The translations under genes and the position numbers were made by a program. A stretch of 64,000 bases of DNA from Ascidiella aspersa (taxonomy: Eukaryota), in contig OZ004612.1 in the NCBI GenBank assembly GCA_963924565.1, positions 13,082,001 through 13,146,000 on the forward strand, in the 5' to 3' direction. The notes beneath the pieces are model-generated. The model did no database searches and had not been told where the DNA came from. It saw only the letters and a program-made list of their open reading frames with translations. Positions within the stretch are counted from its first letter, which is position 1. The number at the start of each line of letters is the position of its first letter. Below are positions 1 to 64,000 of this stretch, one piece after another.

Positions 1-115
1 CCCGACAAGCTACATTACAGATCCGTGCATAGTAGTGTACTTATTTTAATAAAAAATAAAAAAATGGTATTGCCAAATGCATCAGTTCGAATTGCCTCGT
101 TCTCGTCGAGCTTAC

Positions 116-17500: not shown

Positions 17501-20500
17501 GTGGGCTCAGTTGGCGAGAAGAAACTCTACCCGCTAAATGTTACCAGAAGTAAGCCTATGCGCATGACGATTCCTCATTTGTTTTTTCTTTGCAAATTGG
17601 TTAATTTTAAAGGATTACTATATTATTTATTTCGGTACAAATTGCAGTTAAGGCACTCTATAAAATGGATTACTATAATAAACAAGAAATAGGTTAATAA
17701 TTATTAGGGTCTGCTCTAAAGCCTTTTCAAAGGTAAGTAAATAATGAAAGCTTGTTCGAATGGAAATACAAAATTAATGATATTTTACATTGGAAAATAT
17801 AATACCGTTACAAATAAAATCATTTTTGTTTTTGTTTGGTGTAATTTATTTGGCCCTTCGGAACTGTGGTAACATTGCTTCTTTTTACACGTTTGATATT
17901 ATTGAAATATGTTTGGTAATGGCTTCTCTCTAGCTTCAACATACCTCTTTGTACTTGCGACCAAAGCGTTCAAAATACCCGTCAAGGCCCTTTCAGGAAA
18001 ATCGCCCCCGCCTCTTGCTGTAAGCGCTTGCAAGGCAGTAATCATCTCCTCAGGATCGGTTGTTTCGGTTAAAGGACCCACAGCTGAAAAAATATTAAAG
18101 CCAGGTTAAAAACGAACCTCACCAGAACGAAATATTTTGTTGTTATTTAGTTATACAATATTATCGAGAAAAATTACACCTGCATGTGAAACTGAGTTGG
18201 ATCAATTGTAATTTTTAATTGTAATTGATGTAATTAATTACAGGTTTTAAAGTAACTGTAATTGTAATGTAATTGAGATATTTTTATTCTATGTAATTCT
18301 AATTGAAATTAAAATTTGCTAAAATTTTTGGCTCAATACATTGATATTAAGAAAATTGAAGTTTCAATGCCGAAACTCGAAATTGATGTAATTAACTACA
18401 GTTTTTAATGTAATTGTAATTGTAATGTATTTGAAACATTTAAGGAAGTAATGTAATTGTAATTGAACTGAATGAAGGTAACCGACTCTGATGTGAAGTA
18501 GTTTAAACATCTTGAAATATCGCAAAATTTGAAATGTTTATTATACATATTGATGATTTTGTATGTGACCAAGCCCTTACAAAGTGTATAACAAACGTAT
18601 TAGTAGCAAAATGCGGTTCTCTTGGTACTATTCAAATGAAGTTGTATTTACGAACACGATGCCGCAGAAAACGGTACTAGGATCGCTTCGCGACCATGCC
18701 GTTTCCACTTATAGCGTGCCTATATCTCGGTCGGTTGAGCAAGGTCTATAGGTAGGAATGAGGTCGTGTGTTCAAATATCATAGCTGATAAGTGTTTTCT
18801 AACCTTGCCCTCGTTGTTTTATGCCGGCTGTTTTTCGTAAACCTTGTCAATCAGCAATCTTATGTAGTTTAAACTTAATATAACTTGTTTTGGGCTAGGG
18901 GAGACTGAAGAGCTGTGTATTAGGTCTATTACCAGATTTACCAGAGACTGAATATGGGAAATACTTTAAATTAACTTCAAACAGAAAAGGATAATAACTT
19001 GGATCGTTGAAAGGGCTGAGCACGTAATATAGCGGTTGATTGGTTGTTCCAAGAGTTTGCGTGATAATGTTGATCGTCTGGTTTTTTGCGTCTTCGATCT
19101 CGCCGCCCATACTTCCGGTGTCGTCGATCGCAAACGAAAGTGTCGTTCCGACCTTCAGGCTCAGGAAGAGAAGATACTGGACGTTGCCTGTGCGGTAAAG
19201 TAATCTTACGTATTAATAAACATTGGCGGCTGTTGTTATAACGCGCATAAATGCAATAGAGGTCTGAACGTTGGCTCGGTTAGTACTTAGCGGTGTTGTT
19301 TTACTTAAGTCACTGTTTTTAAATGACTTGACTTGACTCAAGTGATTTGAACAAGAGACTTGACTTAGACTTTTGTTTGGTGAAATTTTGTTAGATTCAC
19401 CGTGATTTATGCTTAAAAAACAGTTTGCTCGCTAAATGTCGCATTTTCTATTGTTGCCAATCACATATCAGTCGGAACCGAATACGTTTACCAGTTTCCT
19501 TAATAATTTATTATTTTATTATTTTTATGCAAATAACCTGCTCTGGTATATAGCAACGTTATGATATATTAGTCCCTAAATTCAACGTATTATGCACTAA
19601 AAAGTAGATATTTGAAAAACATCGCACCCAAAAACCAACGCCGAGAGGTTAATCAGAATAAGACGAAACGCATTTTCGTTCGTTTGAAAAAACACTGCAC
19701 ATTCCCCGTTTTGTTAAAAACCTATACAAATCAACAAAATGATCGAACCTATTAAGTTTTGAATGCTGAGCAAGATGTCGTCGAGCAGTTTTGCGATCAG
19801 CGGCGCCTGGTCATCGGTGATCGCCTCCAGGTCGACCGTGCCGAGATCCGGACTTTCCAAGGTGGCCAGCTTCATGAGCCTGACCGTTTCGGCCCTGGCC
19901 TCGTCCAGTTCGTTGCTGACGATCAAGCCAATGACCTTGCTCAAGACGATCGACGAGTTGACACCAACCGTGGTCTTACCCGAGTGCACGCTGTCTAGGT
20001 AGTTTCCCAGAAACCTGGCCAACAATGAAGGGTTGATGAAAGGCGTCGAACCTTGAATGCATTACTGTGCTGTAAGTTCAGCACTAGTCGTTGCGCTACC
20101 CGCAACTCCGTAGATTGCCAAATAGTTGTATTGGAATTTAAAGGCTTCAAACCGGTGGAAATTCGGTCAAAATTTCACGTAGATCACCCATCACTTATAT
20201 TAACCCTCAATGATGTGACATGCCCTACGGCACAGATGTAAATAAAAGGTTAAACGGCACAGAACATGGCTTTAAGAACGGTAAAATAACTAACCCGGCG
20301 GTCGAAGCGGTTTTCCCGAAATGGGCAGTAAAGAGCTCGACCAGAGTGTACTTCTGATCCCTGTTGACCGTGGGGAATCCACCGGGGCCCGGTATTTCGG
20401 CGAAGATCTTCGTCGTGGCGTCCACCAGGCTTTGCAGCACCAGTTTGTCAAAGGTGGTCCCGATGGTGATGGTCGTATCACATTGCGCTTCCTTGATGGG

Positions 20501-21440
20501 CAAATTGTATGTTACGTATACGCTGCTCAGTCGAGTTGCTAGTACACTGCATTTGGCGCGCGCGTGTTCAATTGACTTCGCGTGGCATGCGAAAAGAATG
20601 TGCATTTGTCTATAGACGCAGGTTAAGCAAGATCACTTTACCAAATAACCGACACAATCGGTGGCTCGCAAAGAACATACGGCTGAACTTAACCAGCAAG
20701 CGCTTGTTTAGTCGCTTTATTTTAATGTATACGCGGTTTATGAAAACTTGTGACATTTCTGTGAAGATATTTTAACGTTTAGTCCATTTAACTTTACACG
20801 GCTTTGTTTTAAATACGCATGGCAGTTTTTTGTAAACTCGTCTCAAGACCAGAAAAGCAATTTCAGTAGCTTATATTTTAAGGTGTACATTTAGTCCTAA
20901 TAACCGATAGTTATATAGGTATATTATACTTTTAAATCGTGAGCAATAATAGGAAATAAATAAATGCTAAACCTTTTCAATAATAATGATAAATTTGTTC
21001 CATAGTCGAAAGAAAAGTTTACCTTTTTATTGACGTTGTCTAACATCTACGAAAGGTAATTAAACGTTTTTACATTAAGTTTACTAACAGACGTCAAATG
21101 TATAATGTGTTCTATTGGTTCTAATTGATTCCGCGGTCACATGCAATTGGGCTATCGTCTCTAGTTTGCATAATTATGCACGGTACGCTGGTTTTGAGGT
21201 AACGTCAAGTGTTTACTCTGAGCTATACGCGCAATACAATACTCGCAAAAGCGATTTTATCGGTTTACGTTATTCTCAACAGAACATGCAAAAAGCAAGT
21301 AAAAACAATTTTTTTAATAATAGTTTTTAATAATATTGGCATTACATTACAAAAACAACAACTAATTAACTAACCGTTTGGGTCGGATTTTGGAGCAGAA
21401 AGCCCACAATCAGCAGGGCTACTGCCGACTCGATCTTCAT
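116..21440 (-). CDS. Gene A: secreted VWA7/hemicentin-type VWA + Sushi + VWD-C8-TIL-TILa protein (VWA7 x FCGBP/zonadhesin-like mosaic); 3'-incomplete; possibly a defective allele or young pseudogene
   Basis: 24 phase-compatible exons spliced by hand: 21375-21440, 20295-20491, 19749-20152, 18999-19187, 17945-18083, 17343-17433, 16209-16364, 15694-15820, 15226-15346, 14632-14726, 10774-10955, 7563-7691, 7044-7129, 6489-6654, 6095-6272, 5381-5526, 4391-4498, 3895-4063, 3277-3397, 2706-2841, 1700-1829, 1267-1374, 545-636, 116-260. All introns are GT-AG except the exon-3 acceptor (CG). Exon 3 has TAA at 20062-20064. Confidence 0.88.
2045..2459. mobile_element. hAT MITE with AAGTC-rich internal repeats
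   Basis: TIRs CAGTGTTG / CAACACTG; 8-bp TSD gtttaaat / gtttaagt. Related copy at 26170-26515 and a fragment near 19290-19370. Confidence 0.8.
6095..6272 (-). CDS. Gene A exon 15: Sushi/CCP domain
   Basis: CPVL..C..GSICTLKCGANYAVNGPTQTICQASGRW..C pattern; ag/gtgagt boundaries. Confidence 0.88.
9143..9759. mobile_element. Non-autonomous hAT element, possibly with a decayed transposase 5' remnant
   Basis: TIRs CAGGGGTTCTCAAAC / GTTTGAGAACCCC; flanking duplication is degenerate. Confidence 0.7.
16209..19187 (-). CDS. Gene A exons 4-7: VWA domain of hemicentin/VWA7 type
   Basis: Motifs LSFAIDDTGSMGGEI (MIDAS-like), YVLSPFNDP, GGGDFPERAL, VFMITDADAKD, LYKEIAQDTGG. Confidence 0.92.
16439..16869. 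mobile_element. hAT MITE
   Basis: TIRs CAGGGGTGGGCAA / TTGCCTACCCCTG; TSD gaatagat / ttatagat. Confidence 0.78.
18192..18490. mobile_element. hAT-like MITE with GTAATT internal repeats
   Basis: Ends CTGAGTTGG / CCGACTCTG; TSD atgtgaaa / atgtgaag. Confidence 0.7.
18718..18782 (+). repeat. Degenerate tRNA-derived SINE head
   Basis: A-box-like TATCTCGGTCGG and B-box-like GTTCAAATA at tRNA spacing; no cloverleaf. Confidence 0.35.
19749..20491 (-). CDS. Gene A exons 2-3: shortened VWA7-like N-terminal helical region
   Basis: TFDKLVLQSLVDATTKIFAEIPGPG..ELFTAHFGKTAS resembles the VWA7 N-terminus as I recall it. LLSIQNLIG/NVQYLLFL leads into the VWA domain as in VWA7. Confidence 0.6.
21375..21440 (-). 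CDS. Gene A exon 1: signal peptide
   Basis: MKIESAVALLIVGFLLQNPTQT then donor gttagt; joins in phase 0 to EAQCDTT of exon 2. Confidence 0.8.
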
Positions 21441-41909: not shown

Positions 41910-43570
41910 GAACTCCGCACAAATTCTGCCGACGCCACAAAAAATTATATAATGTTGAGCGGGTATAAGCGTTACCTTCGTGTAAAATGAGTCAGCTTAC
42001 ACGCCATTGTGTTGATTTATCATTAACCGCACAAAAATAACATAAACGAAACCGTATATTATACAACAATTTTTTTACACTCACAATATTTTGGATTGTT
42101 GCATTCAATGTTACTATCAGGGGCTTTTAACAAGTATGAAAATAAATTGTTAAAATAATTATCTATGCTGATGAAATTTACCCTGCCACGTAATATATAT
42201 AGCCTATAGCTATAATACGTTATTATCAGAATTACATCTTGATTTAAACATGCTGGCGAAACTTACAAAACACATATATTGGAGAAATCAGAACGTGTTT
42301 TATCTTCCGCGATCTTACAGAAAAACGAAGATGAGAAAAAAACGGATGTTTCAAGCCGTACGTCAAATGCGCGGGCACCTCTAAGCAATCCTGGCGTGTT
42401 AGCAATAGGCTACAAAGGGCTTAACATATCTTTCGTAATCAGCCGATGTGCGTCACAATGCGAGAAGTATTAGCGCCAAAAGCTGAATTCGTTCGGCGGG
42501 AGAAACAAAGGCGGTTGCCGGGAGGAGTCCGAAAGGTCGGCGGCGCCGAACGCGCGAAATGTTTAGGCAAACACGTATTCAAGAAGGACACCTCGCACGC
42601 CGTCAAATCGCGGAGAAAAAAACGCTCTCGAGTTCCGATTAATTACGACCCAGGCGAAAAAATTAGCTGGCCACAGCTGTGCAGTCCGTGTGGACATAAA
42701 GAGTCGGCAAAGCTATCGAACGATTCAATAGTTGTATGAACTCCGCACAAATTCTGCCGACGCCACAAAAAATTATATAATGTTGAGCGGGTATAAGCGT
42801 TACCTTCGTGTAAAATGAGTCAGCTTACACGCCATTGTGTTGATTTATCATTAACCGCACAAAAATAACATAAACGAAACCGTATATTATACAACAATTT
42901 TTTTACACTCACAATATTTTGGATTGTTGCATTCAATGTTACTATCAGGGGCTTTTAACAAGTATGAAAATAAATTGTTAAAATAATTATCTATGCTGAT
43001 GAAATTTACCCTGCCACGTAATATATATAGCCTATAGCTATAATACGTTATTATCAGAATTACATCTTGATTTAAACATGCTGGCGAAACTTACAAAACA
43101 CATATATTGGAGAAATCAGAACGTGTTTTATCTTCCGCGATCTTACAGAAAAACGAAGATGAGAAAAAAACGGATGTTTCAAGCCGTACGTCAAATGCGC
43201 GGGCACCTCTAAGCAATCCTGGCGTGTTAGCAATAGGCTACAAAGGGCTTAACATATCTTTCGTAATCAGCCGATGTGCGTCACAATGCGAGAAGTATTA
43301 GCGCCAAAAGCTGAATTCGTTCGGCGGGAGAAACAAAGGCGGTTGCCGGGAGGAGTCCGAAAGGTCGGCGGCGCCGAACGCGCGAAATGTTTAGGCAAAC
43401 ACGTATTCAAGAAGGACACCTCGCACGCCGTCAAATCGCGGAGAAAAAAACGCTCTCGAGTTCCGATTAATTACGACCCAGGCGAAAAAATTAGCTGGCC
43501 ACAGCTGTGCAGTCCGTGTGGACATAAAGAGTCGGCAAAGCTATCGAACGATTCAATAGTTGTATGAACT
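41910..43570. repeat. Tandem duplication, 2 x 828 bp
   Basis: Units start at 41910 and 42738. Identical ORF pairs are offset by 828 (42279/43107, 42446/43274). GAACT occurs at all three junctions. Confidence 0.97.
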
Positions 43571-46926: not shown

Positions 46927-49900
46927 ATGGTGGTGGACCTGAGGGGCTTCCTCAACAAGGCGCTGGTGCCTGCAGCGGTGCTGTTCGTCGTCGGGGTTTT
47001 TGCCGACGCGGCCGCCGTTGATGCCACGCATTACAGGGGCGGAACTATTTCCTGGAAACCGAGCTCCGACTATTCGACCAGCAACCGCAAGGTAAGTGAC
47101 CCAAACAGTTGTAGCTGATTTTCGCTTATTCGTTATCTCAACTTCAGCGATCGGGTGATACGTGAGCTCTGTATAGGTTTATTTTGCCTAGAACCTAAAT
47201 CGGGTCGAATTTCTATATTTGGTTGGACATTTGGATTAGGTTTCGCCAAAATTCACTTGACCCTTGTTACATCTTGAACTGCCGAAATTCAACATAATAG
47301 GTTCGAAGTCGTTCGGTAAAAGCTTACGTTTAATAATGATTTCTGTCAAACCTTACATTCAAACAAATGAGATGTAAAAATAAGCTTGTTTGATCAGTTA
47401 CTATATTTGTTAAGGTTTTCCATCTTTAGTGCAATGTTAAATTAGCCGAATTTTACAATTTTGCGTTGTGTTTCTCCACGGTTTGTTTCATCAAAATCAA
47501 ATTGATACAATTTGCGGTGCTTTTTGCAAGAGGTAAATTTGCAATATCAAGAAACGTGTGTCCAAATTTTTGTAACAAATTCTAATGCTCTTAAAATGAC
47601 TTGCCCGTACAGGTACAGCTGATTGTGGTCGCACGCCAGCGTTATTAATTACTACCCTTGTAATCGTACTAGTTAAGGAAATGCCCGTTTTTTTCCCGGC
47701 GCGTCCTTTTAAATTATGTAACGCAAATCGCTGCGCAATCCGTCCATCGAAAACCAGAACGTCCGCTCGTAACAGAGAGGTGACCGCGATTGACGGTAAG
47801 CGACAATTGAAAAGCGTAATGTCAACTCCCGCCGCTTAAAAATTCATGTAGGGGCCGGAAAAATGCGGCTTACGAATCGTCGCCGGGCAGACGAATCGCG
47901 GGGCCGCGCGGCCCACACCCGGTACTTTGGCGGCGGCGTACCTGGTCCCCGCAATTTGGCCCGCTTCTAAGCGACGGCGGTAACGCGAAACCGAAATTTT
48001 CCCGCGCGACCTAAACGGGCCCTGGCCATTTGTGACTAAATTGTTCTCGATTTGTTGCCTTTGGTATCAAGACCTATATGTAGATGCTACACTTATATCT
48101 GTAGTTCGATCTGTAATATACACGGGGATGAAATTTCGGATCGGGTAAAGTGGCATTTGCTGACTGTAAATGAAATGGAAACGAAACTTTTATACATTAT
48201 TACGAATGTTTTTGGTATTTTTTACCTTTACCTAAAGGCAAAGTGCGTGACATCATGAGCTTACAGCTGAGTTTAGAATCCAAATTGTTTGACTTCTGGT
48301 AAAATACTTTGTCTTTTCCGGCAGTTTTATGTTAAAGGCTTAACCATTATTTCAAGTTATACTGTTCTTCCAAACAGGAAAGAATTAGGTGTTTTTATTT
48401 GCCCAAATCCAAAGAAGCGTTTAAAATAAGGGTAAAAGTTATAATTTTAAGGCCGCATGCAATCGTGACCCACAACCTTGTTATAGGCATCTCAATTTTA
48501 TGAGGTTTCCGTGACACCGTCCCCTTCCGGTGCTTGTGCTTTTCGGGCGAAATTTGCGTTTTATTGCGGCTGTCGGAAGGTTAATTGCCAACGGTTCGAG
48601 TTTTTTTCTTGCAAAAAAGCAAAGTCGTGTTTTGGGGCCGAAAAGTGATTAGGGAGCACGTGACCAACACGCGTGCGCTATGATCACGTACACACGGCAT
48701 TGGTTTTGTGCTTTGTTCCGCGATCCCGCCTTGTGTAAGGCGCGGAATTGCAGTTTATGAACTCTGATTTTATGCTTCAAAGCACACCACTAAATGGTCC
48801 ACTATATACGCTTTCTGTTTATTATGTCATCGTAGTTCTATTTGCGCCGTATTTGAAAGCGGCCATAGTTTTCTCATGCAACCCTATGCCATTATGCAGT
48901 TTACCATCAGTAAGAATTAACCCGTTAAATCCTTGTTTTGTGGAAGAGTTGCCTGCTATATTTTATTATGGAGTTGTTAAAATATAAACTTTGTTATGGT
49001 GTGTAGTTCTTCCCAATTACAATCTAGAAAGAATGTTATAACAAAAAAATCTAGCTTTGGTTTGGGTTTAAGCCTATTCTTTATTTTAAGAATCTCGCGC
49101 TGTTCTCGAACCCCAAACATTTTGCCAGTGCCTCGCCCTTGACAAACAATAATGTGGTGTGTTTTGTCACATTTATCACAATACGATTCCTTTAATTCTA
49201 CACGGGTTTAAAAAATTCCAGTGTAGCGATTTTAAGGGCAATTGTTTCAGCGTTCTCATAAGCTATTATCGCGTTTACTAATATGGCCGCAGCTTACTAT
49301 GCGGTTTATTTGTAACTTTTTAAAATCCTGTTTTAAACAGTATTAAAATACTCATACAAACATATTACATATATGAGCGTGTATATAAATGAAAATGCTT
49401 TGAGTTTTAAATTCCTATACACACACTATTTTAAACCTAGAAATACGTTAGTTATTGTCATAATACCTAAATATCTTCTCAAACACCAGTTGACGACGGT
49501 TGAAGCGTTTTGGCCACCTTGTTTTCCGTCAGAAAGCGGTTACACTGCTCTTTGTAATTTTCCGGGAAACTTTATCACCTTTTGACCTTGGCCACATTAT
49601 GCCGTGAAACGAGGTGACAACGTTGTCCGATACAATCGCCTAGATCCGCGCCTATTTGCCGATGCTTGCTTAAACGTGGGCGTTGCTTATTATTTGTCTT
49701 GCTTGTTTTTTGTACGTTGTTTTTAAATAACGTTTTTAAATAAATTTTGGTAATTTTGCCTATTTGAAAATTGGCATTTGCCAAAAAACTAGACAAAGGC
49801 ACATTGATATCCTTTAGTTCGGTACATATATGCATATGGTGCACATGAATACAACTACAACAGTTGCTCTTCAATCACGAAAACCTCTACGTTGCTATTC

Positions 49901-52900
49901 GCTCGTATCGCATATTTTGTCGTTTCGAGCCGAAGTATTTTAACTGTACATAAACTTATTGCCACTTTAAATTAAACCAAACAATAACTGCTACATTAAT
50001 CCCGTAAAAAACGCCATGTAACCACACTGTGTTGCTATAATTACAAAACAGGACCTGTCGAATTAGTCATGAAAAGAAAAGCGAAAATGAAGCTTGAAGG
50101 TCTTGCGATCCGCGTTTACATATCTTGCGTTTAACTTATTCTCACTGTAATTACAAGTAAAGAAATATTTCCTTTTTTACATGTAAACATTACATGAGAA
50201 GCGATATAAATAATTTCCCGCCATTCCGTATAACGAAAAACAGCTTTGCACCAACCGATTGTACATTTTTCAGAGAGATTTATATTTTGAATTTAAACAT
50301 CCTCTTGCCCTTCCAGGTCGAGTTTACGTACAGACTGGCGTGGACGCGCAGTCACACGAAATGCGACCAAGAGACCGTGGACAATCGTGGACTGATTGGC
50401 GACAAGGACCTTACGTGGATGTGCCTATCAGGATGCAGCGGACCTGTGTCTCGATCTAGTAAGTCGCGAGCCTTACATGCACATGTGCTGTTATCCGAGC
50501 CCCAAATTGATTACGATTTAGTGGCAAAGATATCTTCGGGTTTTAAAGATATCTCACCTTCTTAATGCGTTAAGACAGTGGTTCTCAACCTTTTATGGCT
50601 TCCGGCACCCCTCAAAAATAATAAATAGATTTTCAGCACCGCAACTGGAATTTCATTTTACTGAAATGACAATATAAATGAAATTGGAACAACACAACCA
50701 ACTTAAAACATTTAGGTAAATATCTTTTGATATAATGGTCGCTAATCGTACACAAATAGTTGTTACCAATTAAACAAAAACCAGATGCTTGAAAATTCTT
50801 AAATGCCTATTGGCACCCTTGAGCGTTAGAAATGGTAGACCAGGGGGCGCGACACCCCCATTGAGAACCGCTGCGTTAGAAGTTTGTTACGTACGACAAG
50901 AGTTGTTGGATGTAAAACTAAGCGCTTACGACTGTGATGTGCGGAATGTGTATTGTGTTGTATTATTAACTGACTCGGGGTAAAACTGATAACCTTGACT
51001 ACTTTGTTCATGTAATTCCTAAACTTATTTTTGTCGCTGACCTATACGCTGCACGTGTGACGAACATGTTGATTGTTATGACATGCTCTACCTCCGCTTC
51101 CCAATGTGGTGTCATTATGATACCTTTCTCATTATTCGTGTTGAAACTTCAGCTGTTGGTATTTTCTATTTGAAGCAAATTAGCCAACACTCTCTTCACA
51201 GCTCAAAGCATCCGGTGTACGTCATCCATTTTGCGAATAACAAACTTAGGTTGCTCTTCAATCATGGCAACAAACCGAAATGCCGGAAGAAGTTGACGTA
51301 TTCAGTACAGTTTTGTTAGGACATGCTTTTTTGCGAAAAGAGCTAATTAGACATGCTTTTTTGCGAAAGAGCAACTATTATTCGCCATGTAACCAAAGCG
51401 AGAATAACAACAACACCAAAAGGACAACAACAAATCATCTAGTATTTAGCGTTACGTAATCCTTTCGAAACGCCGCGTTGTCATTAGTTAGTCTGGCATA
51501 GGACGTTTGTTATGTCTATTAGATCCGAATTACAGTTTGGTCTACGCTGCGTAACAATGCCATTGCCTTATAAGTCTATTTCGGTCCCCAATGGAGTGAA
51601 CGTGATGCGTTCATTGAATGTATCGAATTGAACTCTAGGGCGGTTTTGCAAACGAGCGCTGGATGTATCAATGCATCGCGTCTGATTTGTTAAAGTTTTG
51701 GCGCTTGGAGTATCTTTTTACCATATTTGCACCGTCGCGTATCTGCTCCGTTGCTTTGACGTAAAGACTGTCTGTTGCATTAAACCTATTTCTCGCCAAA
51801 TCCTCACTCTTGGACATCGACAAGGTTTTCAGGATTTTTTACGTCACTTCCACGTTTGTGATTAATCGGCAAATGCACACGGCCTATACGTAGTAACTCC
51901 TGTATTTTGAAGCGAGGCGTCATTGACGTGAACTTCCAAGAAAGCCTTGTCGGTGACGTAAATAACAAACACGCACAAAGTCACGTATACACACAGCGAC
52001 ATGACGGGTTTAAGGAGAAACCACCCAAAAATTATTTCTGCTTTGCATGAGTTCAAACCTGTCCCATTTAGAGTGTAAAAGGCTTATTACCGTTTTTCAC
52101 AAATGCACTATCCAAGAAAAATTTTTAGGTCCATTTTCTTGCCACTTATTTGGCCTTAACCAAAGTCGATTTTAGCTATTTGAAACGTGTTTGACGTTTA
52201 CCCAGTTATATTTAAAGTACAAAAGTACACAACAAACCTGTATCTTAGTAATGAACGATAAGCTATATACACTAATTATGTCGAATTTCGTAAACATAGA
52301 TTAAATATTTATTTCGTGTTTGCATGTTACCCTATTATATATTTATCATTGGGCAAACTAAGTGATATGCGAAATGTCCTTTTAGGAGTACATTGTACGA
52401 ACTTCAGCGAACCTCACGACTGGTCTACAGGAGAAAACACCTTCGAACACGTGTTTCAAGACGACCGACTCTTTGAAATTTCGTAAGTATTATTACTGAT
52501 GTAACATGTTTACAAGACAAGGAGAACAAATATCGAAAAGGCGCGTTTTAATCTCACAAACTTGATACTTAGTATTTGCAAGTTAGACAAATTAGGACGC
52601 TGGAAAAAATAAAAAAGACGCCTTAACTGTTCGCAAAGCTTTAACGGGTTGTGGTATCAAAAGATGACGTATTTCATTGTTCGTCCTATAATTCCTGTTT
52701 AGTTTTTTCTGCTCGAGTTTTGTCGGCGACAGCCACGACAAGGTTCCGGTAAAGCAGTTTATGGATCATGTCACGGTAAAGCGATTAAAGGCACTTATAG
52801 AAGCGTTGATTTTCAGTCCGTTGTTTAATCGTTGGCTTGCCGAGAATCCTGAAATCCAAGCACCGGTAAATAATGCAACAATGACTTATCCAGCGTTGAG

Positions 52901-55900
52901 CTTTGATCACCTTGAACTACTTAAAATCACCTTAGCTACAATCCGCCTTAACGTTTAGCGATTCGGCAAACACTTTCCATAAGGAAGTTGAAAGGTTTCT
53001 CCATCAATTTACTTCCATCATTAGTAAACTCGCGTAATTCCTCATGTCAGCTAAAACATATTGGAATGAAGATTCTGTTGGTTATGACGTATGCGCTGTA
53101 ATAAAACAAAATCTAATTTGGCACTGAACCAATGGAAACGATTTTAATTTGAGGCTTTACGAGAAAGTCATTTAAGCAGAATTGATTAAAACACCCAAAC
53201 GTCCTTCACTTTTAGTTGAGGAAAATGTCACTGATGACGTAAGACAATAATGATTTAGGCCTACAACGATTTATGCGAAGGGATATTGTTCCCATTATAG
53301 CAAGTTACATACGGCGCTTTTAGCTTAAAAAGGCGGTTAATAGATTTTCGCACAGACCAATAATCAAAATCAGTGGTATGCAGTCGAGAAAATTCGAGTT
53401 TACATCAAACTATAACGTCCTTAGTATTTTGCTGGTAGTTGGGAGCCAAGGGTAGGATTTGCCCCGTATGTGGTAAAACGGTTTAACAAACTGTATACTG
53501 CTTTTGTTTCACGATCGTCCGATTTGCATTCACCACAATCGGATTAAGCCTTTTTCGGCATGTAACGACAATGCACAGGAAAGAATCGGATTAAGGAACC
53601 GGTGACGTGGAAATATACATTTAAACACGCGCGCATTGCAAAATATTTTGAGTTGAGATCGCCTCAATTTAGGTTCCTTTGATAACAACAAACTGGATTT
53701 CAAGCACTACAAGTCCACGATGCCTCGATTGTTATTAGGAATTTACTAAGTTGGATAAACCCCAAGACAATAATATAAATCGCTTTAATAAACGTGTAAA
53801 CCAGTGTACTTGCCCTCCAAACCTTACCTCGACTTGTTTTTTGGCTATATAAACGTAGAAAGAGTCGATTTTGGGGCAAAAACACAGAATATTTTTTGAA
53901 CAGGTACATGCATTGCTGCTGGGCGGAAACGAACAACACAAACGCCAACACTGAGTGGGCGATGACCACTAAAGTATTACTGGGAAACAGGAGCGACACC
54001 GGAACGGTCAACAGCGCCCCTATTGTCCATTCGCCTCTTACTATTCGGTGAGTGTATTTAGTTGGCGATTAGAATAGGTCCATCGAGAGAGAGAAGAGGT
54101 GTGTTGGAACTTCATAAATTTACTATTTGTGGTCGAAATATTTAAAAATATGCGGCTTCTGATTTTATTTGTGATAAAATTTGTTGTAACCGACTTTTAT
54201 TAGAAGTATACAATAAATCAAGATTGGCATAAAAACGATGACTGACAGAAAATGTTTTTCTGGAGTTAGTGTGTATTTTTTACTATAAACGCAATTCTTA
54301 ATACTTACCGAGCTTCAAAGGTAGGTTTGTCAATATATATTGCCTAAATCACTCAAACAAGTATATTGCCTGAATTACTCATTTGAAAAAAATAGGATGT
54401 TCCTATTGTTTTGCAAATGCTCGATGTGTCCCCCCTCTATTTTTCATACAATTGTTATCATTAAAAAAACTCAGTGGTAAATACAATACCTGACAAAATT
54501 GATATAGACGAAAGAGTGAGTTTTCAATTTTTAGTTTATAAAGTGCTATAGAATTACTTCGCGGAAATCTAAATGGACTATTTGTATAATGGCAACCGAA
54601 AGGAGTGGTGTTTTGTTAGAGAAACAGATGGGAGAGGTAGACCAGCGCCTCGAAATTCCCGTAACTTTAATCATTACCTATATATGAACAAAACCACAAA
54701 CTGCTGATAACTCAAAGTGGCGTTCGATATGAGCACCTGTTTCGCGACGTTGTTAAAAATCACATCCTATACGACTTGCCAAAGCCGGTGGTTATGGCCC
54801 TCCAAATGAGTGGTCGGAAGGCTTAAGAAGCCGCCAAGTTACGTCATTTAATCGAGCCTCAATTGACGATCCCGCGATAAGGCGGTTACAAAGAGTGAAA
54901 TATGTCCCGAGGCATTGTCGATAAAGCAGGGCATGTATGGTGCTGCAATGTTGTAAGGGGAGTTGCAGAAACTTGAACCACGTACCCTGTATAGTTATAA
55001 AACCGCACAAACTTTACATATACTTTAACATATACGGCTTGACAGTCGCCCGATTAATCCAGCAAGTCGGCAAACGTTGTTTAGCCAAAAGCGGTGGTTT
55101 TTGGCGTTGCGGTCATTGCTGGCGATTAACGAGGCGTATTGCGGCAATCGCTTTAGAGGATGGTAATTAGTAAAGTCCAAAAAATGTCAAGGGCGTGGCT
55201 AGCTTTAATTCGAAAATCCCCTTATTTGGCATTGAACAGATTGGGCAAGCGATAACACTACAAAATTAAATTGGTTTAATTTGGTTATGCCGGAAAAGTT
55301 ACAAGTTCATGCCTAAACTTTTGTTTGCTAACTTTAATGTGAATTTTCGTCCAAATATTTGACTGTTTGGTTACTTTGCTTATAGAGCTTTGATTTAAAT
55401 TTGTTTTCTGACTATGCAAATTTATCTCTGAAATTGTAAAAGTTTTTACCTAATTTTTGCCAAGTTTAACGTTTTAAAAGAGAATTTATAGACTGGCGAT
55501 TTTATTAGTTCAAAAGGCGAAAATAAGGGCGGAGCCTACAGCAGTGATTCTTAACCGGGGTTCCGCGGCACACCAGGGTGCCATTTTAACGCTCGAGGGT
55601 GCCTAGAGATATTTCAAATTATTTAGGATGCCAATTTTTGCTCTATTGGTAAGCTTCTTGGTACAATTTTTTGTGTACAATAAGAGTGCCAAAATTAAAA
55701 AAAAAATTTAAACCTTGTTGCATAGTTAATGTGCTGTTTCAATCCTGTTTATTGTACCGTTACAAATCAGCAAAAATACAACTATTTATAGTTTATCTAG
55801 GGTGCCGCAAGCCAAAAAAGGTTGGGAACCACTGGTATAGTCGATTTCACGAATATTTCAGGTATAAAAATGCTATATTTCCTCGCAGAATCGACAGTGG

Positions 55901-58900
55901 CGTTCCGTCCACAATCCAACTGAATATTAACGATCCTGATGGCGACAACGTCACTTGTCGACTTGGAAGGGAATTCGCCGAATGTGGACACGCCTGCGAT
56001 TTGCCGAAAGACTTTCAGCTCGACCACGTGAGCAAACGCGTTGGTTTTTTCTTGATGAGCGTTAAGCTTAATTTGTTTGCGTGAGACACTCCTTGTATTA
56101 AACGAGATGTAAATTCAATCAATCCGTTTACCCTTCGATTTTGATCAGTTCTGTGTAATTGGATAAAGGTGGTGCCATGGTAAACAACAGGCCTATTTGT
56201 TATTCCTGGGATAAATAATACTGTCTTGCCCTATATCCCAATAATTATTAAAATTAATAAAATACCAGTTTCTTTTTATTTTTAAAAAGGACGGACGTGC
56301 ATTTTTCATGACATAAGTTAAAACACCTTTTTAACGCACAATATTATTTTAAACTTTTTTACCATGCAAATTTAAAAAAAGGAAAACCTGACATAAATTG
56401 TTCGTTGAAAAACGAGAAGTCATAAACGCGTGCTTATCGATAGGTCAATTGCCGCCTGACTTATACGCCCAGCGAGAATGTGACAGGCAATGCAGCCGTT
56501 TCCCTGTTGGTGGAGGATTACCACCAAGACGGCTCGATCTCTGTGGGACTTTCTCGAGTGCCTCGCATTTCGCCGCTCAGCTCCACGCCCTTTCAGTTCA
56601 TCGTGCAGAGTAAGTTGGGGGACCTGAGTTACAACGACTGCGGTCGTATTGGACACGACTTGCGTTCTTGTTCTTTTCTGCGTTTTGGGCATCGCTGACG
56701 CGTCGTTGGCATGAAAGATACGTTATCGCGGGTTTTATCGTTTCGTATTAATCTAACAGAAACTTTACACTTTGTATCTAAATTTGACTCGAAAACTTAA
56801 ATTTGTCCATACATATTTTCACTCGCCATGACAGTTAATTACTATTAACAATTCCAATCTACTATGTGTTGTTGCTGAAGTAGGCCTACCATCGCTTGTA
56901 AGCTACCGCAGGCAAAACTGAGTAAATCTTTACAGAGAGCATGGGCTCTTAAAATATTTTTACCGCGGGGCTCTACAATTTTTACAATTTTTTTTCTTCG
57001 CGTGGACCACGGAAAGGCCAGAAATTGTCAACAATGACGTCACAATCAAATAGGCTTCAGAAATATGCTGATTTTTTTTTATAAATTTACGTCACAATAC
57101 AAATACACATTCAGTGCTAAAATGTTTTCTTTTTAATTAAACTCCTTTCTTTGAAAAATGAATTTTAAAAAATACACTCATATTTCAATTTGGCCTTCAT
57201 GGCCCCAATAAAATTAGTTCACAGACCCCAAGAGGCCCATGGACCCGGTTTAAGAAACCTTTGCTATAAAGTCTTTACTCCGGAACTCTAACAAAAGGTT
57301 AAGGCTACTTGTTGATTGACTGTAGGTAAGAACTTGTCAGTGTTTTGTAAACTATTATCACGTTAATTTTATTCTACCAGTCGGCGATCCAGCACCTAAG
57401 GCAAAGGATTGCAGCCAGGGCTTGCCAGATCTGAAGCTGGGCGCTAACAAAAACCACGTTACCGTTGTAAAGGTGGGCCGACGATTCACGATGGACGTCA
57501 GCGCATCGCCGTGCGACTCCAGAACCAGGTGAGTGTTTTCAGTGTTCAGGTGCCATTGATTTTTTGTTTTAGTTTCAGTTTGCGGAAGATTAATTTATAT
57601 TCGACAAGCTCTGTGTTTTGTGACAATATGCCTACTTCAGCAATTTGTTGTTTGACATCATTTTTTTTTAAGTTTATATATAGGTCTTAGGTATAGGGAA
57701 CTTTTTATCCTATACCAGCTCACTCCTGCATCAGCGCTATTTTTTATTTCCTTTTATTTGTAGTTTATTTGTGTTTACTGTTGTTGAACAGAAATGATAT
57801 TGCCTTTATTGGCGTAGGCTAACTGCATTAATCGGAATTTTAATAAAATGTTTGAGTGTTTTTTAACCTTTGTGATTCGTTTTGGATCCATTTAAAAGTA
57901 CTTTTCTTAGACCATTTTGATGACACTTAACCTAAATTTACAAAGCAATAAGGAATTGTAGTTCTTTAGTATAAAAACTCGAATTGTATTTTGCGAAAGA
58001 AGTACTTGTATTTTTTAAAATGCCAAAATATACTCTTCAGGTTAAAAAATGTGAAACAGGTACAGAAAGTGTTTTGAAACGTCAAAAGGTTCGAAAATTG
58101 TCTTGATTCTGTAGAATTTCCGGCTTTTCGATCAACGGCCCGAACGGCACAGCCCTCGGAGATTTCGTAACTGTGGGCGGCGGCGCAATGCGCACCCAGC
58201 TGTCGTGGTTACCGCGCGAAGGTCAAGAGGGTCGCTTTAACGTCTGCGTGTCGGCCCAGGCTGTTACAAAGTAAGTACGAAACCTTTGTTGAACTTGCTC
58301 ACCTAAACCTATAGTTAGATATTCGATTGACTCTGTCGACCTTATGGCCCCTGCCTTTTGGGCGTCGTGGAAATTTCGCAGGGGAAGGTGTAGTGTATAT
58401 TTGACAGCTTTGTGACGTCACAAAATCATGAATAGAAATCCAAGTTTGAAAAATAACAAGAACGTTAGTTGGCTTTAAATATTACTATCAATCGGTTTAA
58501 CTTTGTGGTAAAACCGTATCCTCGAACAATGACGCTATCTGTATGCTGAATAGCGTAATACAATTAAGAAGAGTCACGGTATCAACTTAACCGAAAACCG
58601 GAGTGACGAAATACTACGGTTGTGAATTAATTTGATGACGTTAATACAGTAATGTTGTAAAACAAAACGTGACTTAGTACGACTGCAAACTTAACGTTCG
58701 CAATACAGCCTTGTTTGCAGACTATGACCAAAAAAGTATTTACCTATTTCATGTGACATCTACTTTTGATGGTGTATTCTTTGTATTTAAAGCATTAAAC
58801 ATAAAGTAACAAAAATACATGTTGAAAATCACGCGCTTTGCTGTTCCTATAAGCTTAGCTCCAGGGGTTATGTACCGGTAAAAGCAGGATGGATAAGATC

Positions 58901-61900
58901 ATTCACGCCAATGTGTTTTTCTGTACGTACGGTAATAGAAGTGCCAGTAAAGTTTGCTTGGCAGACAAATGGAATACATATAAATGACGAACGGGTGCCG
59001 ACGTGAAAATTGCTCACTTGTGTTGGTTTGGAGATAACGGGCTTTGAGCCAATCCCTGATTTTGTTCTGCTGATGTTTTTCAGATTGTCAAGAACCTATA
59101 GAATATCGGACGAAGTGTGCGTCACCGTTCTTGTCGAACCTGGTAAGCGTCTTTATTGGTATATCGCATTTAACAAACTCTTCACTGTGAAATCAAGTTT
59201 ACAAAATTTTAACAAGCCTAAGGCATGACAGGATTTTAATCCAGTAGGTTTTCAACGAGTAACCTGCTTAGATGCAGTCCTATACAATCCGCTAGACTTC
59301 GAACAGATGTTGGCCACTTACAACACTTACAAATGACATAAGCTATTGCTGCCAGGCAAACTATATAATGGAGTGTAGCTCTTCCAGCAGTATATATAAT
59401 ATAATCGACGTTTCGACGTGCTATACAGAACGTCTTCAGTTCTGTAAAACAAGATTCCTTATAAATCGACAAGTAACAATTTGTGCGATTGCAAACTCGT
59501 TTGGTGCAATAGCGCGCGATAGCTTATCGGCATTAGACACGTCAGGTTTTACGTTCATGGTGCTGGCGCGTAAATGGATGTTCCACGACTGAAGAAAACC
59601 TCGCTTGTGGTAATCGGTTTCCTTCGTCAACACCTGAGCAGCAGAAAAGTTAATGCTGTGCTTGTGGGTAGTTGCATGGCTTGCCAACGCTGATTTCTTG
59701 GCATCCTACTTACCCACATCCCTTTCGTGCTCCTTCCGGCGCGTATTTAAACATCTAGCCGTCTCCCATTTAAACATCTACCCGTCTCCATGTAAATTTC
59801 GTCACATTCATCGCACGGTATAGCATACACCACACCCCTTGTCGCAGTGACCCGGTTGATGCAACTGCGACAAGGGGTGTGGCGATTGGGTTTTCTCATA
59901 TCCTCACAATGCTCAAAAAGTGGTTAAAATACGGCGAGCCATTACTAAAAATGCCTGCCTTGCAAACCCCTGCAGCGCGCCCGAAATTGGTACAGGGACA
60001 TGCTGGGTTTCGCTTTGATTGACGTGCGACAACATTTCCCGTCGATTTAATCACGCGCTGAACTTGCTTGCAGCGGTGGCCTACTGCCGGGGATCGGGCG
60101 GGATGCACTTCATCACTTTCGACGGGCTGCGCTACACCTTCAACGGCGGCTGCCGCTACCAGCTCGCCCTTACCACGTTCGACCCTCTGTCCAGCGTTGG
60201 CCAGCAACTGCAGTCATTTAACATCACCGTAAGTTGTCGGACGCCTATTTGTATATACTTACATAATTACGTATACGTGTCAAAAACAGCGTCGAAATTC
60301 AAATCGTTAAGTTGTTTGCACAAAGGCGCAAATTTTTATGGTTTATTACTTTATTACAAAGTTTGTCGCAAGGTAATGCTGCTATTCACACCACTTATTA
60401 TTTTCAATTGATGAAGCTAAACTTCGTATAACAAGTTAAAGCGTTTGCTTTGGATACGACACTTCTTGTTTTTGATTATTTGTATTGTTTTTGATTAATA
60501 CCGATTATTTAGTTAATATTGGTGCGATGCATTGAATTACTATTGTGAATTACGTGAAGCGATCTGACAATTACTTCGTCTAAGTTGCGTCATGTGGTGA
60601 CGATGCTTACATTACGATGTACGGCAATGTCCAAGTGGATATGCGCATAAGACCAATGTATAATGCGAAATTGTCACCGTTTCTCATACTATACCTTTCT
60701 ATGACGTTCTAGTTGCGTAGTTTCAACGAAATATGGTCGTAAAGTTTAAATCATGGGAAGCCGTTTGTAATTTGCGCTAACGAAGTTCTACTGGGTTTTT
60801 ATATTTTGTTCGAAGTTTGTACTGTGAACCCCGACCGTAATATATTTTGCGGTACATCTTCCATAATGACGTAAGGTGCGGTTTAACGTATAGCCCCGAT
60901 TTCACTGTTGTTGCTTACAAAGGCTAATACACTTGTGTATTGTCTTAGCAATTTTGGGATTATTTCCTACCAAGTGTCAACGCACGAACCAGTGCTGTAT
61001 TGGCATACCGTAGGAATTGCAGGTCTCCTTTAAATATTCCCAAGCAGCCTCCTTAGGTTATGCGCCCCTCGGCTATGCGTTGTTTAGCAACAATAGCCGA
61101 GAAATGCGCGTAATCGTTTTGTAACAGTAGATGCCCTGTTATAACGTCTCCATGGAGTTTAAGATAAAGCCGCAAGACAGCGATTTGCCTTTGTGGTGCC
61201 TAAACGTCATGCAATCTGAGAATTAGCCACAGCGCTCCTAATATATAGGATTACTGGAGGAATAGCGTATTCGTGTCACGAATTCTTTATCGGCTCGTTA
61301 GGAGAATGATGCGAAATGAAGCCCAAGGAATGCCAAAAGTTACAGGATACTGCGTGTTCCTGCTAGTCGTCCCGGTTAAGGTTATCAACTTTTTGCAATA
61401 ACCTAACCCTATAATGCGTAAGTTTTAGAATCTGGTGGAATCCAGTTGATTTTACTGACCATTTGTCGATGACCTTAATACTAACGTAAATTATAGCAGT
61501 ATTAGCGATTGAATATTTCGTTTTTGAATGCGAAATTTTTTTGCATATCTAAGCTTCGTATTGTTAAATAGTATTTGTATCAAATATTTAGAAAAGAAAA
61601 GTGAAAAAATTCCTGTGGCGCAACAGTAACTATATAGATGACCCAAAATAACTATACTATGTATAAACTACAGCGGCTGGCGATTCTAGATAAACCAAAA
61701 ACTAGTCTAACTCTATGGTCGACTTTTTAGACTTTAAAAGCTCCAAATTAGATAATTTAAATTTAATTTTAAAAAATACTTATTTACCTTTTATTCTCGT
61801 CATCAGGTTCTCAACGACTTCAGTTTGGGTTCGGACGGGCGCCCTCATGTGCGCAGCATTCGCATCACCATAGCAACAAAGACGATCGAGCTAAGAAGGA

Positions 61901-63579
61901 ACAAACGTATCATGGTGAGCTACACGTTGGTCGTTCTATTACAACAGGGGCTTCGTTTTTTAGCGCTGCCCGTCGTTTTTCGGATATGCAGGCCACATTT
62001 GGTTGTTTTTGTTTTTGCCGAAAATCCATACAGCACAAGGCGTCTTCTATAGAATTGTTCCAAGCTCAACAATAATTCATTATTCGATGGGTGGAAAGTG
62101 GTTGCACGTTTTTCCATTGCCACATCCCCTAAACAGCAGTGCACAGTCGGGTCAGAATACCGAATGCAAAGTCTTAATTTTAAGGCAACATTTATTCAGT
62201 ACAAACTACACATTGTCTGCATTACGCTCGAAAAGCACTATAATAGCTTATTCTACTTGAACGTGTCATTACAACAAAGCTAAACACCATTTTCGCAAAC
62301 TAATTTATATAGACACAAGTAAGACTTAAATCTGTACCTGATGGCAGATTTTAAGCAAGTCCGCAATTTACGCTTTCCGAATATGCTTTATAGACCTTCT
62401 ATATTACAATAATAATAATCGTTGGTTGTGCAATATTTCGTGCAATAAAGACACACGCTAATGAACTTGTCATGCAAAATTTAAATTTCCAATAGCTGAC
62501 TAAATATGTCGGTCGTGTCAATAGGTTAATTTAATGAGTTTCGTTACGTTTCAAGCGATTCGTAAGGTTTAGTGAGCATTCATCATTTAACTCGTTTGGC
62601 GAGGTTGTCCATTTAATTGCGAAAGCTTTGTACCAAACCACTAATTAGGTCAAATACGGGGAAGTTTGCTTCCCAGTGTGTTTGCCACCAAATAAGTGCT
62701 CGTGTCTCTCTACACACCATTTACTGAAAAACCTTATCTGTCCAATTATGGAATTTTGATGCCTCGACTGCTTTCCACGCCAAACCGTAACGTAAATTGA
62801 AACGCGGTTATGTGTTAGGCAATAAAATGCAAATGAGAACTATAATGACATCATCAACAGTCCGACACATGTATTGTCCTAGCCCTGAAATGCACGAGAA
62901 TCATTAAAGGATTAGGAAAAACGGGGAATTATTACCTGCGCGATGCAGTCGAAATGATGAATTATTCCAAGCAGAAACGAACCGAATAACTTTAGAAACA
63001 CATTATAAACTTAATTTCCATCCTTCCCGTTTGCTTTTAGTATACATTGCTAAAACACGATGTATTGAAGAGACGAAATACTTCCGTATAGCTAGAATAT
63101 TTTATTAAATCAAGTGATTTTTCGTTTTCAAATCGTTCAGGTCAATCTAAAAAGGCTACGTTGTTCAATATTTTTGTAGACTAAAATTATTTTCTTTATT
63201 CCTTTGCCTATAGAGTTTGACATTATTATTACCAGCTGATTTAAAAGCAAACCTTAGAATAACAAATAAAAGGCTTTGAAACTAAAAAAATGGTATACAC
63301 TACCGAGATTATTTGCTAATGCATACCTTATTATGTGTGCCATAATCCCATTGTAAAAGTTTATAGAGATATATTCCCTGAAAAAGAATTATTCACATTT
63401 TTCTGCACCACAGGTCGATGGTACGAGGGTCCACGCTCCTGTAAGATTCCGCGGCTTTAACGTCGACCTTAGCGGCAAGTATGTTCTGCTCACGGCCGAC
63501 TCCGGACTGAGCGTTCGCTACGATGGCATGTCCGGCTTCATGATCGGCCTGCCTACCCAGTATACGGATCACGTGAAAG
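46927..63579 (+). CDS. Gene B: secreted protein with Sib/integrin-beta-like 'HYRGG' N-terminal domain, beta-rich domain and VWD domain; 3'-incomplete
   Basis: 12 GT-AG exons in one open frame: 46927-47091, 50317-50458, 52386-52482, 53904-54047, 55889-56027, 56444-56609, 57381-57528, 58115-58270, 59084-59142, 60074-60228, 61807-61914, 63414-63579. Signal peptide MVVDLRGFLNKALVPAAVLFVVGVFADAAAVDA is followed by THYRGGTISWK. Confidence 0.9.
50576..50873. mobile_element. hAT MITE
   Basis: TIRs CAGTGGTTCTCAA / TTGAGAACCGCTG; TSD cgttaaga / cgttagaa. Confidence 0.8.
51219..53610. promoter_or_regulatory. Cluster of ACGT-core bZIP (CRE/ATF-like) motifs; putative intronic enhancer of gene B
   Basis: At least 11 TGACGT/ACGTCA sites plus one TTACGTAA in 2.4 kb. 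Confidence 0.4.
55542..55834. mobile_element. hAT MITE
   Basis: TIRs CAGTGATTCTTAACC / GGTTGGGAACCACTG; TSD not preserved. Confidence 0.7.
59400..59882 (-). mobile_element. Penelope-like retroelement remnant (GIY-YIG endonuclease end), antisense in gene B intron 9
   Basis: Minus-strand translation RGVVYAIPCDECDEIY.ET(G/A)RCLNTRRKEH..*..KSALASHATTHKHSINFSAAQVLTKETDYHKRGFLQSWNI. It is disrupted by a stop and a ~23-bp internal duplication. Confidence 0.85.
60074..63579 (+). CDS. Gene B exons 10-12: VWD domain
   Basis: CRGSGGMHFITFDGLRYTFNGGCRYQL..VLLTADSGLSVRYDG..LPTQYTDHVKG. The expected GLCG exon is not found within the window. Confidence 0.88.
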
Positions 63580-63610
63580 GTGAAGTCAGGCGTTTTGTTG
63601 TTGTTTACTC

Positions 63611-63611
<1 letters not shown>

Positions 63612-63659
<48 letters not shown>
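63612..63659. repeat. Poly-A plus (AT)n microsatellite
   Basis: Seen directly. Confidence 0.95.
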
Positions 63660-63660
<1 letters not shown>

Positions 63661-64000
63661 CTTATATATAACTTTATCTTTTGTTTGGTTCAATTCGAAT
63701 CTTCTGTATGAGTGAAAATGTTTTTATGTTCGATCAGTTAATCCTAAATACTTTGAACAGCGATTTGCCTTTTGCCGGGTAAAATTATGGCCTTTACTGC
63801 CCGATGCACTTAAATTGCACATTGCCAAAAAACTGCTTGTTTTGAATTAACGTGAGTAAATATTAAAACCATTCGGAAATATTTTGAACGTCTCGAATAA
63901 TTAATTCTTTGTTTATTTTTAACATAATGTTCATAATATTCTAACTATACCCTCCAGGCACTTATGTCCAAATGCTTGCATAGAGATAAAATTACAAGTT

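Follow-up and report, generated by a model that had tools for sequence, protein, structure and literature searches.

A Sib-type N-terminal module predicted to head a chain of VWD-C8-TIL units from the sea squirt Ascidiella aspersa

A 64,000-nucleotide stretch of the sea squirt Ascidiella aspersa (contig OZ004612.1, positions 13,082,001 to 13,146,000; G000:C6:13082001-13146000 of the 308.6-Mb genome; hereafter the window) carries the start of a gene that is predicted to join an N-terminal module related to the N-terminus of the Dictyostelium Sib proteins, here called the head, to a chain of six D units of the VWD-C8-TIL type. The predicted product is a secreted, disulfide-rich rod of ~2,900 amino acids (aa) with the Sib-type head at its tip; the chances appear evenly balanced that it acts as an FCGBP-like accessory protein of mucus or gel, with a calcium-stiffened binding tip for microbial or glycan surfaces.

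Nine GT-AG exons on the + strand (46927-59142; Table 1) encode a signal peptide and the ~375-aa head (approximately aa 32-405), and remain open into a VWD exon across an intron of 931 nt (59142-60074); altogether, the 12 exons in the window, with AG acceptors and GT donors, splice stop-free into 548 aa. The head motifs are all located on the + strand in sequence order, so that the first-pass annotation, which had placed them on spliced exons fused to a VWD, is borne out at the level of predicted splicing; the first VWD begins at 60074, just past 59142, where that annotation had ended. The coding sequence has a GC content of 0.56 and a third-position GC content (GC3) of 0.66, compared to ~0.38 for the window, and strong hydrophobicity over 19 residues is confined to stretches of the gene model that begin at aa 8-13. 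A profile-guided spliced aligner, written for this analysis and using a profile built without the window's head, reproduced seven of the head's eight introns, six of them exactly and one with the acceptor 12 bases later; its alignment stopped short of the eighth. The spliced head scored 273 bits over positions 2-353 of a profile that excluded the window, while the best of 200 shuffles reached 4.4.

Beyond the window the gene continues for ~33 kb, as far as G000:C6:13179345 (loci L002-L005), with its stop at window-equivalent position 97345. The downstream stretches keep the reading frame, and Pfam searches of single frames yield a pattern of VWD, C8, TIL, and TILa domains that corresponds to six units, followed by an EGF domain, a predicted helix, a Mucin2_WxxW (CysD) domain divided between the final two exons, and the stop codon; high GC3 and open frames extend across ~50 kb of the gene. 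In the ab initio model, 63 exons encode ~2,920 aa, among them 176 cysteines, and there are 40 N-glycosylation sequons. The GDPH motif occurs in one of the six D units (unit 2) and TDPH in two, and the remaining three lack DPH. The predicted protein shows no hydrophobic segment beyond its signal peptide, and thus neither a second signal peptide nor a membrane anchor; it has no proline-threonine-serine (PTS) region (maximum PTS content 32% per 60 aa), and no cystine knot or chitin-binding domain was seen in it, its C-terminal exons consisting of EGF, helix, and WxxW. VWA was not matched among the scanned exons of the gene, nor FCGBP_N in its head exons. Since hydrophobic segments after the signal peptide and PTS regions are both missing, the scaffold reads as a D-assembly chain of the FCGBP/zonadhesin type, predicted to be secreted, and not as a gel-forming mucin.

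The head appears homologous to the N-terminus of the Sib proteins, via homologs that pass Pfam cut-offs, and to bacterial secreted or surface proteins. A core head profile retrieved 5,194 clusters with the threshold set to E<=1e-3 and 1,800 with it set to 1e-10, counts that include cadherin-like bacterial repeats and false hits; 142 of the 150 best profile matches align to the window's head, the top ones with 27-33% identity. The Pfam scan covered 93 of these 150; the other 57 were 47 proteins under ~400 aa and 10 cysteine-poor multi-repeat proteins judged to be cadherin-like false hits. Six animal-type proteins among the 93 pass the Pfam model SIBA-E_N, and the nearest match, P0025 (33% over 299 aa), scores 36.6 against a cut-off of 28.1. 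A scan for the motifs yielded 42 loci from metagenomes and three from bacteria; intron-poor loci align with the head over its full extent (best E 2e-23), and two of the three from bacteria do so with most or all of it. The bacterial locus L062 exceeds the Pfam cut-offs for SIBA-E_N (53 bits) and Ig_SIBA-E_2nd (29.7), as does the bacterial protein P0134. The animal profile matches the bacterial protein P0203 with an hhalign value of 99.8% over 322 columns, and in a small comparison 32 of 33 bacterial matches align with the window's head at E<=0.01; the homology to animal and to bacterial members is collinear and takes in head domains 1-3. PF24907 turned up in 2 of 301 genomes from one bacterial seed's phylum and in 3 of 300 from another's class, seeds included and one further genome unscored; in these two groups the family is rare.

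Thirty representatives looked up by name range from sponge to teleost; three were nameless, and none was named as a tunicate. They include Sycon, Pocillopora, Orbicella, several bivalves, Lingula, Gordionus, Rotaria, Antedon, Patiria, Holothuria, Branchiostoma, Nothobranchius, and Gambusia; the family thereby spans sponge, coral, molluscs, brachiopod, nematomorph, rotifer, echinoderms, amphioxus, and teleosts. Several members bear the automatic names integrin beta-like protein A, C, or D, and an Atlas cluster named integrin beta-like protein has 102 members, with Chordata as the commonest phylum. Searches with exons 4 and 1 singly against a protein collection were blank, which says little on long orthologs since the collection was limited to proteins of up to 2,000 aa; single-exon searches of the ESM Atlas, plasmids, and PDB sequences were also blank. 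The available text of two reviews treats Sib as amoeba-specific (PMC9453864, PMC2651865), and the head module is not mentioned in the available part of a sponge aggregation-factor study (PMC11670116). A DD3-3-like protein of Halocynthia belongs to another family (PMC6916515).

The head of this gene is evidently, judging from residues and introns, of the animal type and vertically inherited. It holds nine cysteines (C71, C91, C95, C106, C206, C215, C232, C378, and C398) together with W141, R164, and Q280 that are typical of 113 animal heads and are found in none of 39 aligned bacterial heads. It scores 277 bits on the animal versus 110 bits on the bacterial profile (the profiles differ in depth), and its identity is 27-33% to the best animal matches versus 20-26% to bacteria. 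The introns lie at profile positions and phases 20/0, 70/1, 103/2, 149/2, 196/0, 240/1, 286/2, and 340/2, the last placed by hand alignment. They are shared with the C4 paralog (7/7), with L044, which is 70% identical to an oyster protein (6/7), with L027 (5/6 after merging one split call), and with L054, 99% identical to an Orbicella protein (3/3 after dropping one spurious terminal call); the probability of sharing by chance is 1e-5 to 1e-12, from a profile-guided aligner. Rotifer-like loci have no intron exactly in common with the window; one lies two codons from 340/2. In the phylogenetic trees bacteria and animals stand apart (SH-aLRT 99-100; FastTree 0.70-0.88), and the heads of this genome form one clade only when bacteria are omitted (nine rows, 0.916) or limited to six rows (four rows of this genome, 0.946). 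The animal-only cysteines, and the introns that coral- and oyster-like loci have as well, effectively exclude a recent transfer; as the window's copy appears animal-type and vertically inherited, any horizontal event would predate the animals.

In AlphaFold models of two homologs, a mussel protein (P0010) and P0033, the head consists of three and two beta-sandwiches, respectively (mean predicted local distance difference test score 87.6 and 93.9), and can be described from these models as a three-domain Ig/cadherin-like module. Domain 3 is nearest to the cadherin-like repeats of SraP (Z 9.6, root-mean-square deviation (rmsd) 2.0, 87 residues aligned), and domain 2 to dystroglycan (Z 7.1) and to cadherin repeats (Z 5.8-6.8); among matches that include domain 1 none was conspicuous (the best to domains 1 and 2 together have Z 7.7 and 6.7 with rmsd 3.7-4.5), which does not by itself indicate a new fold. 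Foldseek returned only generic Ig/cadherin rows of low TM for both models; PDB sequences gave one row against the family profile (E 0.16), and exon 6 matched Cadherin_5 at E 0.13. The canonical calcium linker of cadherins is DxNDN; the head has DxD and xD motifs, with NSAP where the canonical linker would be. The best-kept residues in animals and bacteria together are N171, P174, D198, D200, D202, R207, E214, and D254. Within the acidic cluster, N171 is kept in 113/113 animal and 39/39 bacterial heads, D198 in 113/113 and 38/39, D202 in 112/113 and 33/39, and D254 in 111/112 and 37/39; these conserved residues are, we infer, placed like a cadherin-type calcium linker. At the mature N-terminus, H35, R37, and W43 are common to animals and bacteria; the histidine motif lies at a median residue of 23 (range 17-59) in 95 proteins, and in bacterial proteins the module stands at the head, with Ig, MBG, and TSP3 stalks behind. 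The CC motif may act as a vicinal-disulfide sugar binder, a term absent from the papers that a literature search listed.

The partners of the head among the 93 scanned homologs were EGF (21), ZP (12), CARDB/RHS (6), Sushi (5), NIDO (5), SRCR (3), and GPS with a seven-transmembrane (7TM) domain (3), and 41 had no partner domain at E<=1e-5. VWD occurred in two, each time singly and behind NIDO, never directly after the head, and in none of nine further cluster members. At least 12 head copies were found in the genome, of which only the one described here sits on VWD; the others are located at C4:5.14 Mb, on C7 (five), at C4:1.40 Mb, at C2:24.9 Mb (two), and at C2:27.1 Mb (two). Their tails contain ZP in five checked cases and EGF with 7TM in two, and four C7 copies with unannotated tails gave no D-unit match.

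The first-pass annotation had described a bacterial-type domain of Sib and bacterial kinship, poorly characterized, patchy in invertebrates, unusual in its fusion to VWD, and set on a mucin-like scaffold. The kinship holds, since homologs pass SIBA-E_N and bacterial homologs align across all three domains; the unusual direct pairing with VWD agrees with the partner counts given above, and literature searches brought up no study of the animal family. Other parts need revision: the head is a module of three domains and not one, named homologs from sponge to teleost and the 12 copies in this genome do not fit a patchy occurrence, the bacterial label conflicts with animal-only cysteines and with introns at positions also used in coral- and oyster-like loci, and the scaffold is of the FCGBP/zonadhesin type without PTS. 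On the suggested phylogeny with bacteria, the separation of animals from bacteria stood whereas the position of the window's branch within animals did not; the suggested structure search provided cadherin-like neighbors for domains 2 and 3 and left domain 1 without a clear match.

The first-pass annotation had also missed that a neighboring gene carries the same rod under another head. This neighbor starts ~25.5 kb upstream on the opposite strand (head-to-head), and consists of a VWA7-type head (VWA_4, with a weak Ig_VWA7 match), Sushi, three D units, EGF, helix, and split WxxW. Its tail is collinear with the gene (25.6% over 1,444 aa, E 2e-108); its second unit matches D5 best, and its EGF-WxxW end corresponds to the gene's at 34.7%. 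In both genes the junction of the head with the first VWD exon is a phase-1 intron, the border of the neighbor's Sushi exon is also phase 1, and the 3' border of the Sib-type head is phase 1 in all six copies inspected (the window, C4, C7a, C7d, L044, and L027). In a same-species RNA run, 10 reads spliced across Sushi to VWD of the neighbor (90% likeness). The simplest reading is that an inverted duplication was likely followed by a replacement of the head, with either head possibly ancestral: a D-rod gene would have been duplicated in inverted orientation, an intron-bordered head from a gene of the head-EGF-ZP type would have been shuffled in at the phase-1 intron, and D units would have been gained internally. 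Between both genes, at 41910-43574, the window contains an 837-bp direct tandem duplication (99.9% identical) that represents either a recent duplication or an assembly artefact.

As caveats, several observations weigh against parts of this account. For the gene itself, no joint was listed at its exons in ~6% of the RNA run at 95% likeness, and its splicing is a prediction; the neighbor is spliced in the same run where the gene shows no listed joint, with thresholds that differed (90% vs. 95% likeness). The ab initio model has a few wrong exons and at least one false exon, a genomic repeat. The architecture of head plus tandem D units is new as far as searched, a search that for other sea squirts covered proteins no longer than 2,000 aa. 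The window's own exons, scanned singly by Pfam, gave no Sib match, and an own-genome search for the SIBA-E_N family was blank; a search meant for Dictyostelium Sib returned 34 proteins, none named amoebal, so that the Sib link rests on Pfam. With 39 bacteria or a mixture model, the long branch of the window's head is basal to the animal rows or unresolved; this placement is unstable, and monophyly of the heads of this genome is not rejected (approximately unbiased test, p 0.22). The structural models represent homologs and not the window's protein, the Z scores of domain 2 fall below 8, the guide level of the tool for common folds, and domain 1 has no clear structural match. For the gene pair, the unit-by-unit match is clear only for D5 and the end, while the neighbor's other two units score best elsewhere and were assigned by exon sizes only.

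Among known systems, FCGBP of vertebrates and amphioxus is comparable in combining a signal peptide, a bacteria-shared N-terminal domain, and a VWD-C8-TIL chain without an anchor; amphioxus, vertebrates, and ctenophores are known to combine this N-terminal domain with VWD (PMC4948705). FCGBP has an FCGBP_N head in place of the Sib-type head, 7-13 units, mostly with GDPH, compared to six with one GDPH; unlike FCGBP, the gene described here ends in EGF, helix, and CysD. A C-terminal disulfide dimer has been described for FCGBP (PMC11796319). The two FCGBP_N hits of this genome are on C2, ~320 kb from the nearest listed VWD match. The Dictyostelium proteins SibA-E (SIBA-E_N, PF24907; Ig_SIBA-E_2nd, PF24908) share a homologous N-terminal module, linked through the animal and bacterial homologs; they are receptors with VWA, bacterial-like repeats, a transmembrane helix, and an NPxY tail (PMC9453864, PMC2651865), in contrast to a protein that has none of these, is predicted to be secreted, and ends in WxxW. 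The animal integrin beta-like proteins A/C/D of coral, molluscs, echinoderms, and chordates have the same head, cysteines, and intron positions; their partners are ZP, EGF, CARDB/RHS, Sushi, NIDO, SRCR, and GPS/7TM, and VWD appears only behind NIDO. Head and VWD-C8 are combined in one chain in a Branchiostoma protein named TECTA (CAH1266756.1, P0144) and a Mercenaria mucin-like protein (XP_053395370.1, P0054); yet these are TECTA/MUC4-type scaffolds with a single VWD, NIDO between head and VWD, and ZP/SEA or EGF tails, in contrast to tandem D units. Ci-GFM1 of Ciona, like gel-forming mucins and VWF, likewise contains D assemblies in a secreted chordate protein of ~2,900 aa (PMC6109156); gel-forming mucins and VWF follow the order D1-D2-D'D3...D4, whereas the gene here has six units, with no PTS region, cystine knot, or chitin-binding domain seen.

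The proposed mode of action is drawn from FCGBP because it is a D-unit chain with a bacteria-shared N-terminal domain, and because the head tips bacterial stalks. The ligand would be bound by domain 1, with which the mature protein nearly always begins; the cluster N171/D198/D200/D202/E253/D254 between domains 1 and 2 would bind calcium; and, by analogy with FCGBP and mucins, the sole GDPH in unit 2 may undergo self-cleavage, and the D units and the C-terminal CysD may cross-link the protein into a gel. The same architecture and origin could alternatively belong to a stage-restricted structural or adhesive component, such as egg coat, tunic, or larval or basal glue; this is possible although rather unlikely. 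It would account for the lack of a joint in an RNA run where the sister gene is spliced, and it is consistent with ZP as the commonest partner of the head in this genome, with a zonadhesin-like protein in the amphioxus egg coat (PMC3543715), and with mentions of VWD in the adhesive-protein literature; yet CysD/WxxW, like D units, is a typical feature of mucus proteins (PMC4948705). There is a small chance that the head serves calcium-dependent self-assembly or acts as a spacer arm, through cadherin-like homophilic contact that helps to polymerize ZP and D-unit scaffolds: domain 2 resembles cadherin repeats, the acidic cluster comprises the most conserved residues, partners include the polymer-forming ZP and D units, and teleost proteins carry three heads in tandem; against it, the head is mostly first in the mature chain and occurs also on adhesion G protein-coupled receptors (GPCRs), SRCR and Sushi chains, and bacterial stalks. 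That the fusion is an artefact of the gene model, which would have joined a gene for the head alone to a separate D-rod gene downstream of it, or that it is a pseudogene that is not expressed, is improbable; the missing RNA joint and the false exon downstream would fit, but the consensus phase-1 donor at 59142 resembles that of other inspected heads, the 931-nt intron is followed by neither a stop nor a second signal peptide, and high GC3 and open frames persist over ~50 kb. A recent entry of the head from a bacterium, suggested by the vicinal CC (37/39 bacteria vs. 44-46/113 animals) and by trees in which the window adjoins bacteria as the first animal branch, is extremely unlikely given the animal-marker cysteines, W141, R164, and Q280, the profile scores and identities, and eight introns at positions common to other copies, most also to distant animals.

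Table 1. Features in the window (numbering from its first letter).
Feature	Coordinates	Strand	Remarks
Paralogous neighbor	1..21440	-	predicted ATG 21440; runs past window to about G000:C6:13066400
Exon 1	46927..47091	+	ATG; hydrophobic signal peptide (aa ~1-31); head domain 1 begins, with the HYRGG motif
Motif THYRGG	47026	+	
Exon 2	50317..50458	+	head domain 1
Exon 3	52386..52482	+	head domain 1
Motif CTNFSE	52394	+	
Motif HDWSTGE	52415	+	
Exon 4	53904..54047	+	domain 1 end (vicinal CC, W141), RSDTG loop, N171-x-x-P174 linker
Motif HCCW	53911	+	
Motif NRSDTG	53986	+	
Motif NSAP	54010	+	
Exon 5	55889..56027	+	head domain 2: D198-x-D200-x-D202, R207, E214; predicted calcium site
Motif DPDGD	55932	+	
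Motif ECG	55980	+	
Exon 6	56444..56609	+	head domain 2: E253-D254, PLSS..QF
Motif LSSTP	56576	+	
Exon 7	57381..57528	+	head domain 3 (Ig/cadherin-like)
Exon 8	58115..58270	+	head domain 3
Exon 9	59084..59142	+	final head strand; phase-1 donor, predicted shuffling border
Exon 10	60074..60228	+	VWD start of D unit 1 (Pfam VWD 31.4 bits)
Exon 11	61807..61914	+	VWD1
Exon 12	63414..63579	+	VWD1
Intron 12	63580..64000	+	gene extends past window end

Introns of the gene contain high-copy short repeats at 50580-50880, 55540-55835, 57000-57240, and 59400-59860, seen as depth jumps in the RNA run. Beyond the window, at window-equivalent 147,700-164,500 on mixed strands (L010-L012), at least three near-identical copies of exons occur that resemble what we take to be a DOMON domain. 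Two tandem genes at G000:C2:24.888-24.918 Mb (L155-L158) combine a diverged Sib-type head, two EGFs, and a secretin-type 7TM domain, and are thus adhesion GPCRs, a pairing also found in P0124 (Mytilus), P0039, and P0071. A tandem array at G000:C7:20.73-20.96 Mb (L073-L096) has five head genes, three near-identical; the one checked is head-EGF-ZP. IgGFc_binding (FCGBP_N) exons at G000:C2:4.894-4.895 Mb (L111-L112) have no D-unit match within 4.84-4.91 Mb, and at G000:C1:4.32-4.38 Mb (L120-L126) ~60 EGF exons of the calcium-binding type precede two D units, EGFs, and three WxxW. Elsewhere in the head family, P0002, P0157, P0003, and P0004 carry two or three heads in tandem without any Pfam family (those looked up are teleost), and in P0020, P0040, P0089, and P0104 (3,600-4,100 aa) an animal-type head precedes CARDB, RHS, and DUF7619.

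Exon shuffling at phase-1 introns, by which the gene would have arisen, is an ordinary mechanism, and Pfam models and automatic NCBI names for the module already exist; from the gene pair it can be seen how mucus proteins with multiple VWDs can acquire new tips. The head sits in thousands of clusters, including receptors such as adhesion GPCRs, and as a secreted, soluble, three-domain module with clean exon borders it should express easily. Tentatively, the head may be an ancient ligand-recognition tip, found from sponges to teleosts, in bacterial adhesins and in amoebal Sib, that plugs into and is swapped among ZP, SRCR, adhesion-GPCR, and D-unit scaffolds; the gene would then be an independent analog of FCGBP, whose function is still open (PMC8267560), and would form, with its differently expressed VWA7-headed sister, a natural head-swap experiment. 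If this is true, the gene and its sister could reveal what the head module binds.

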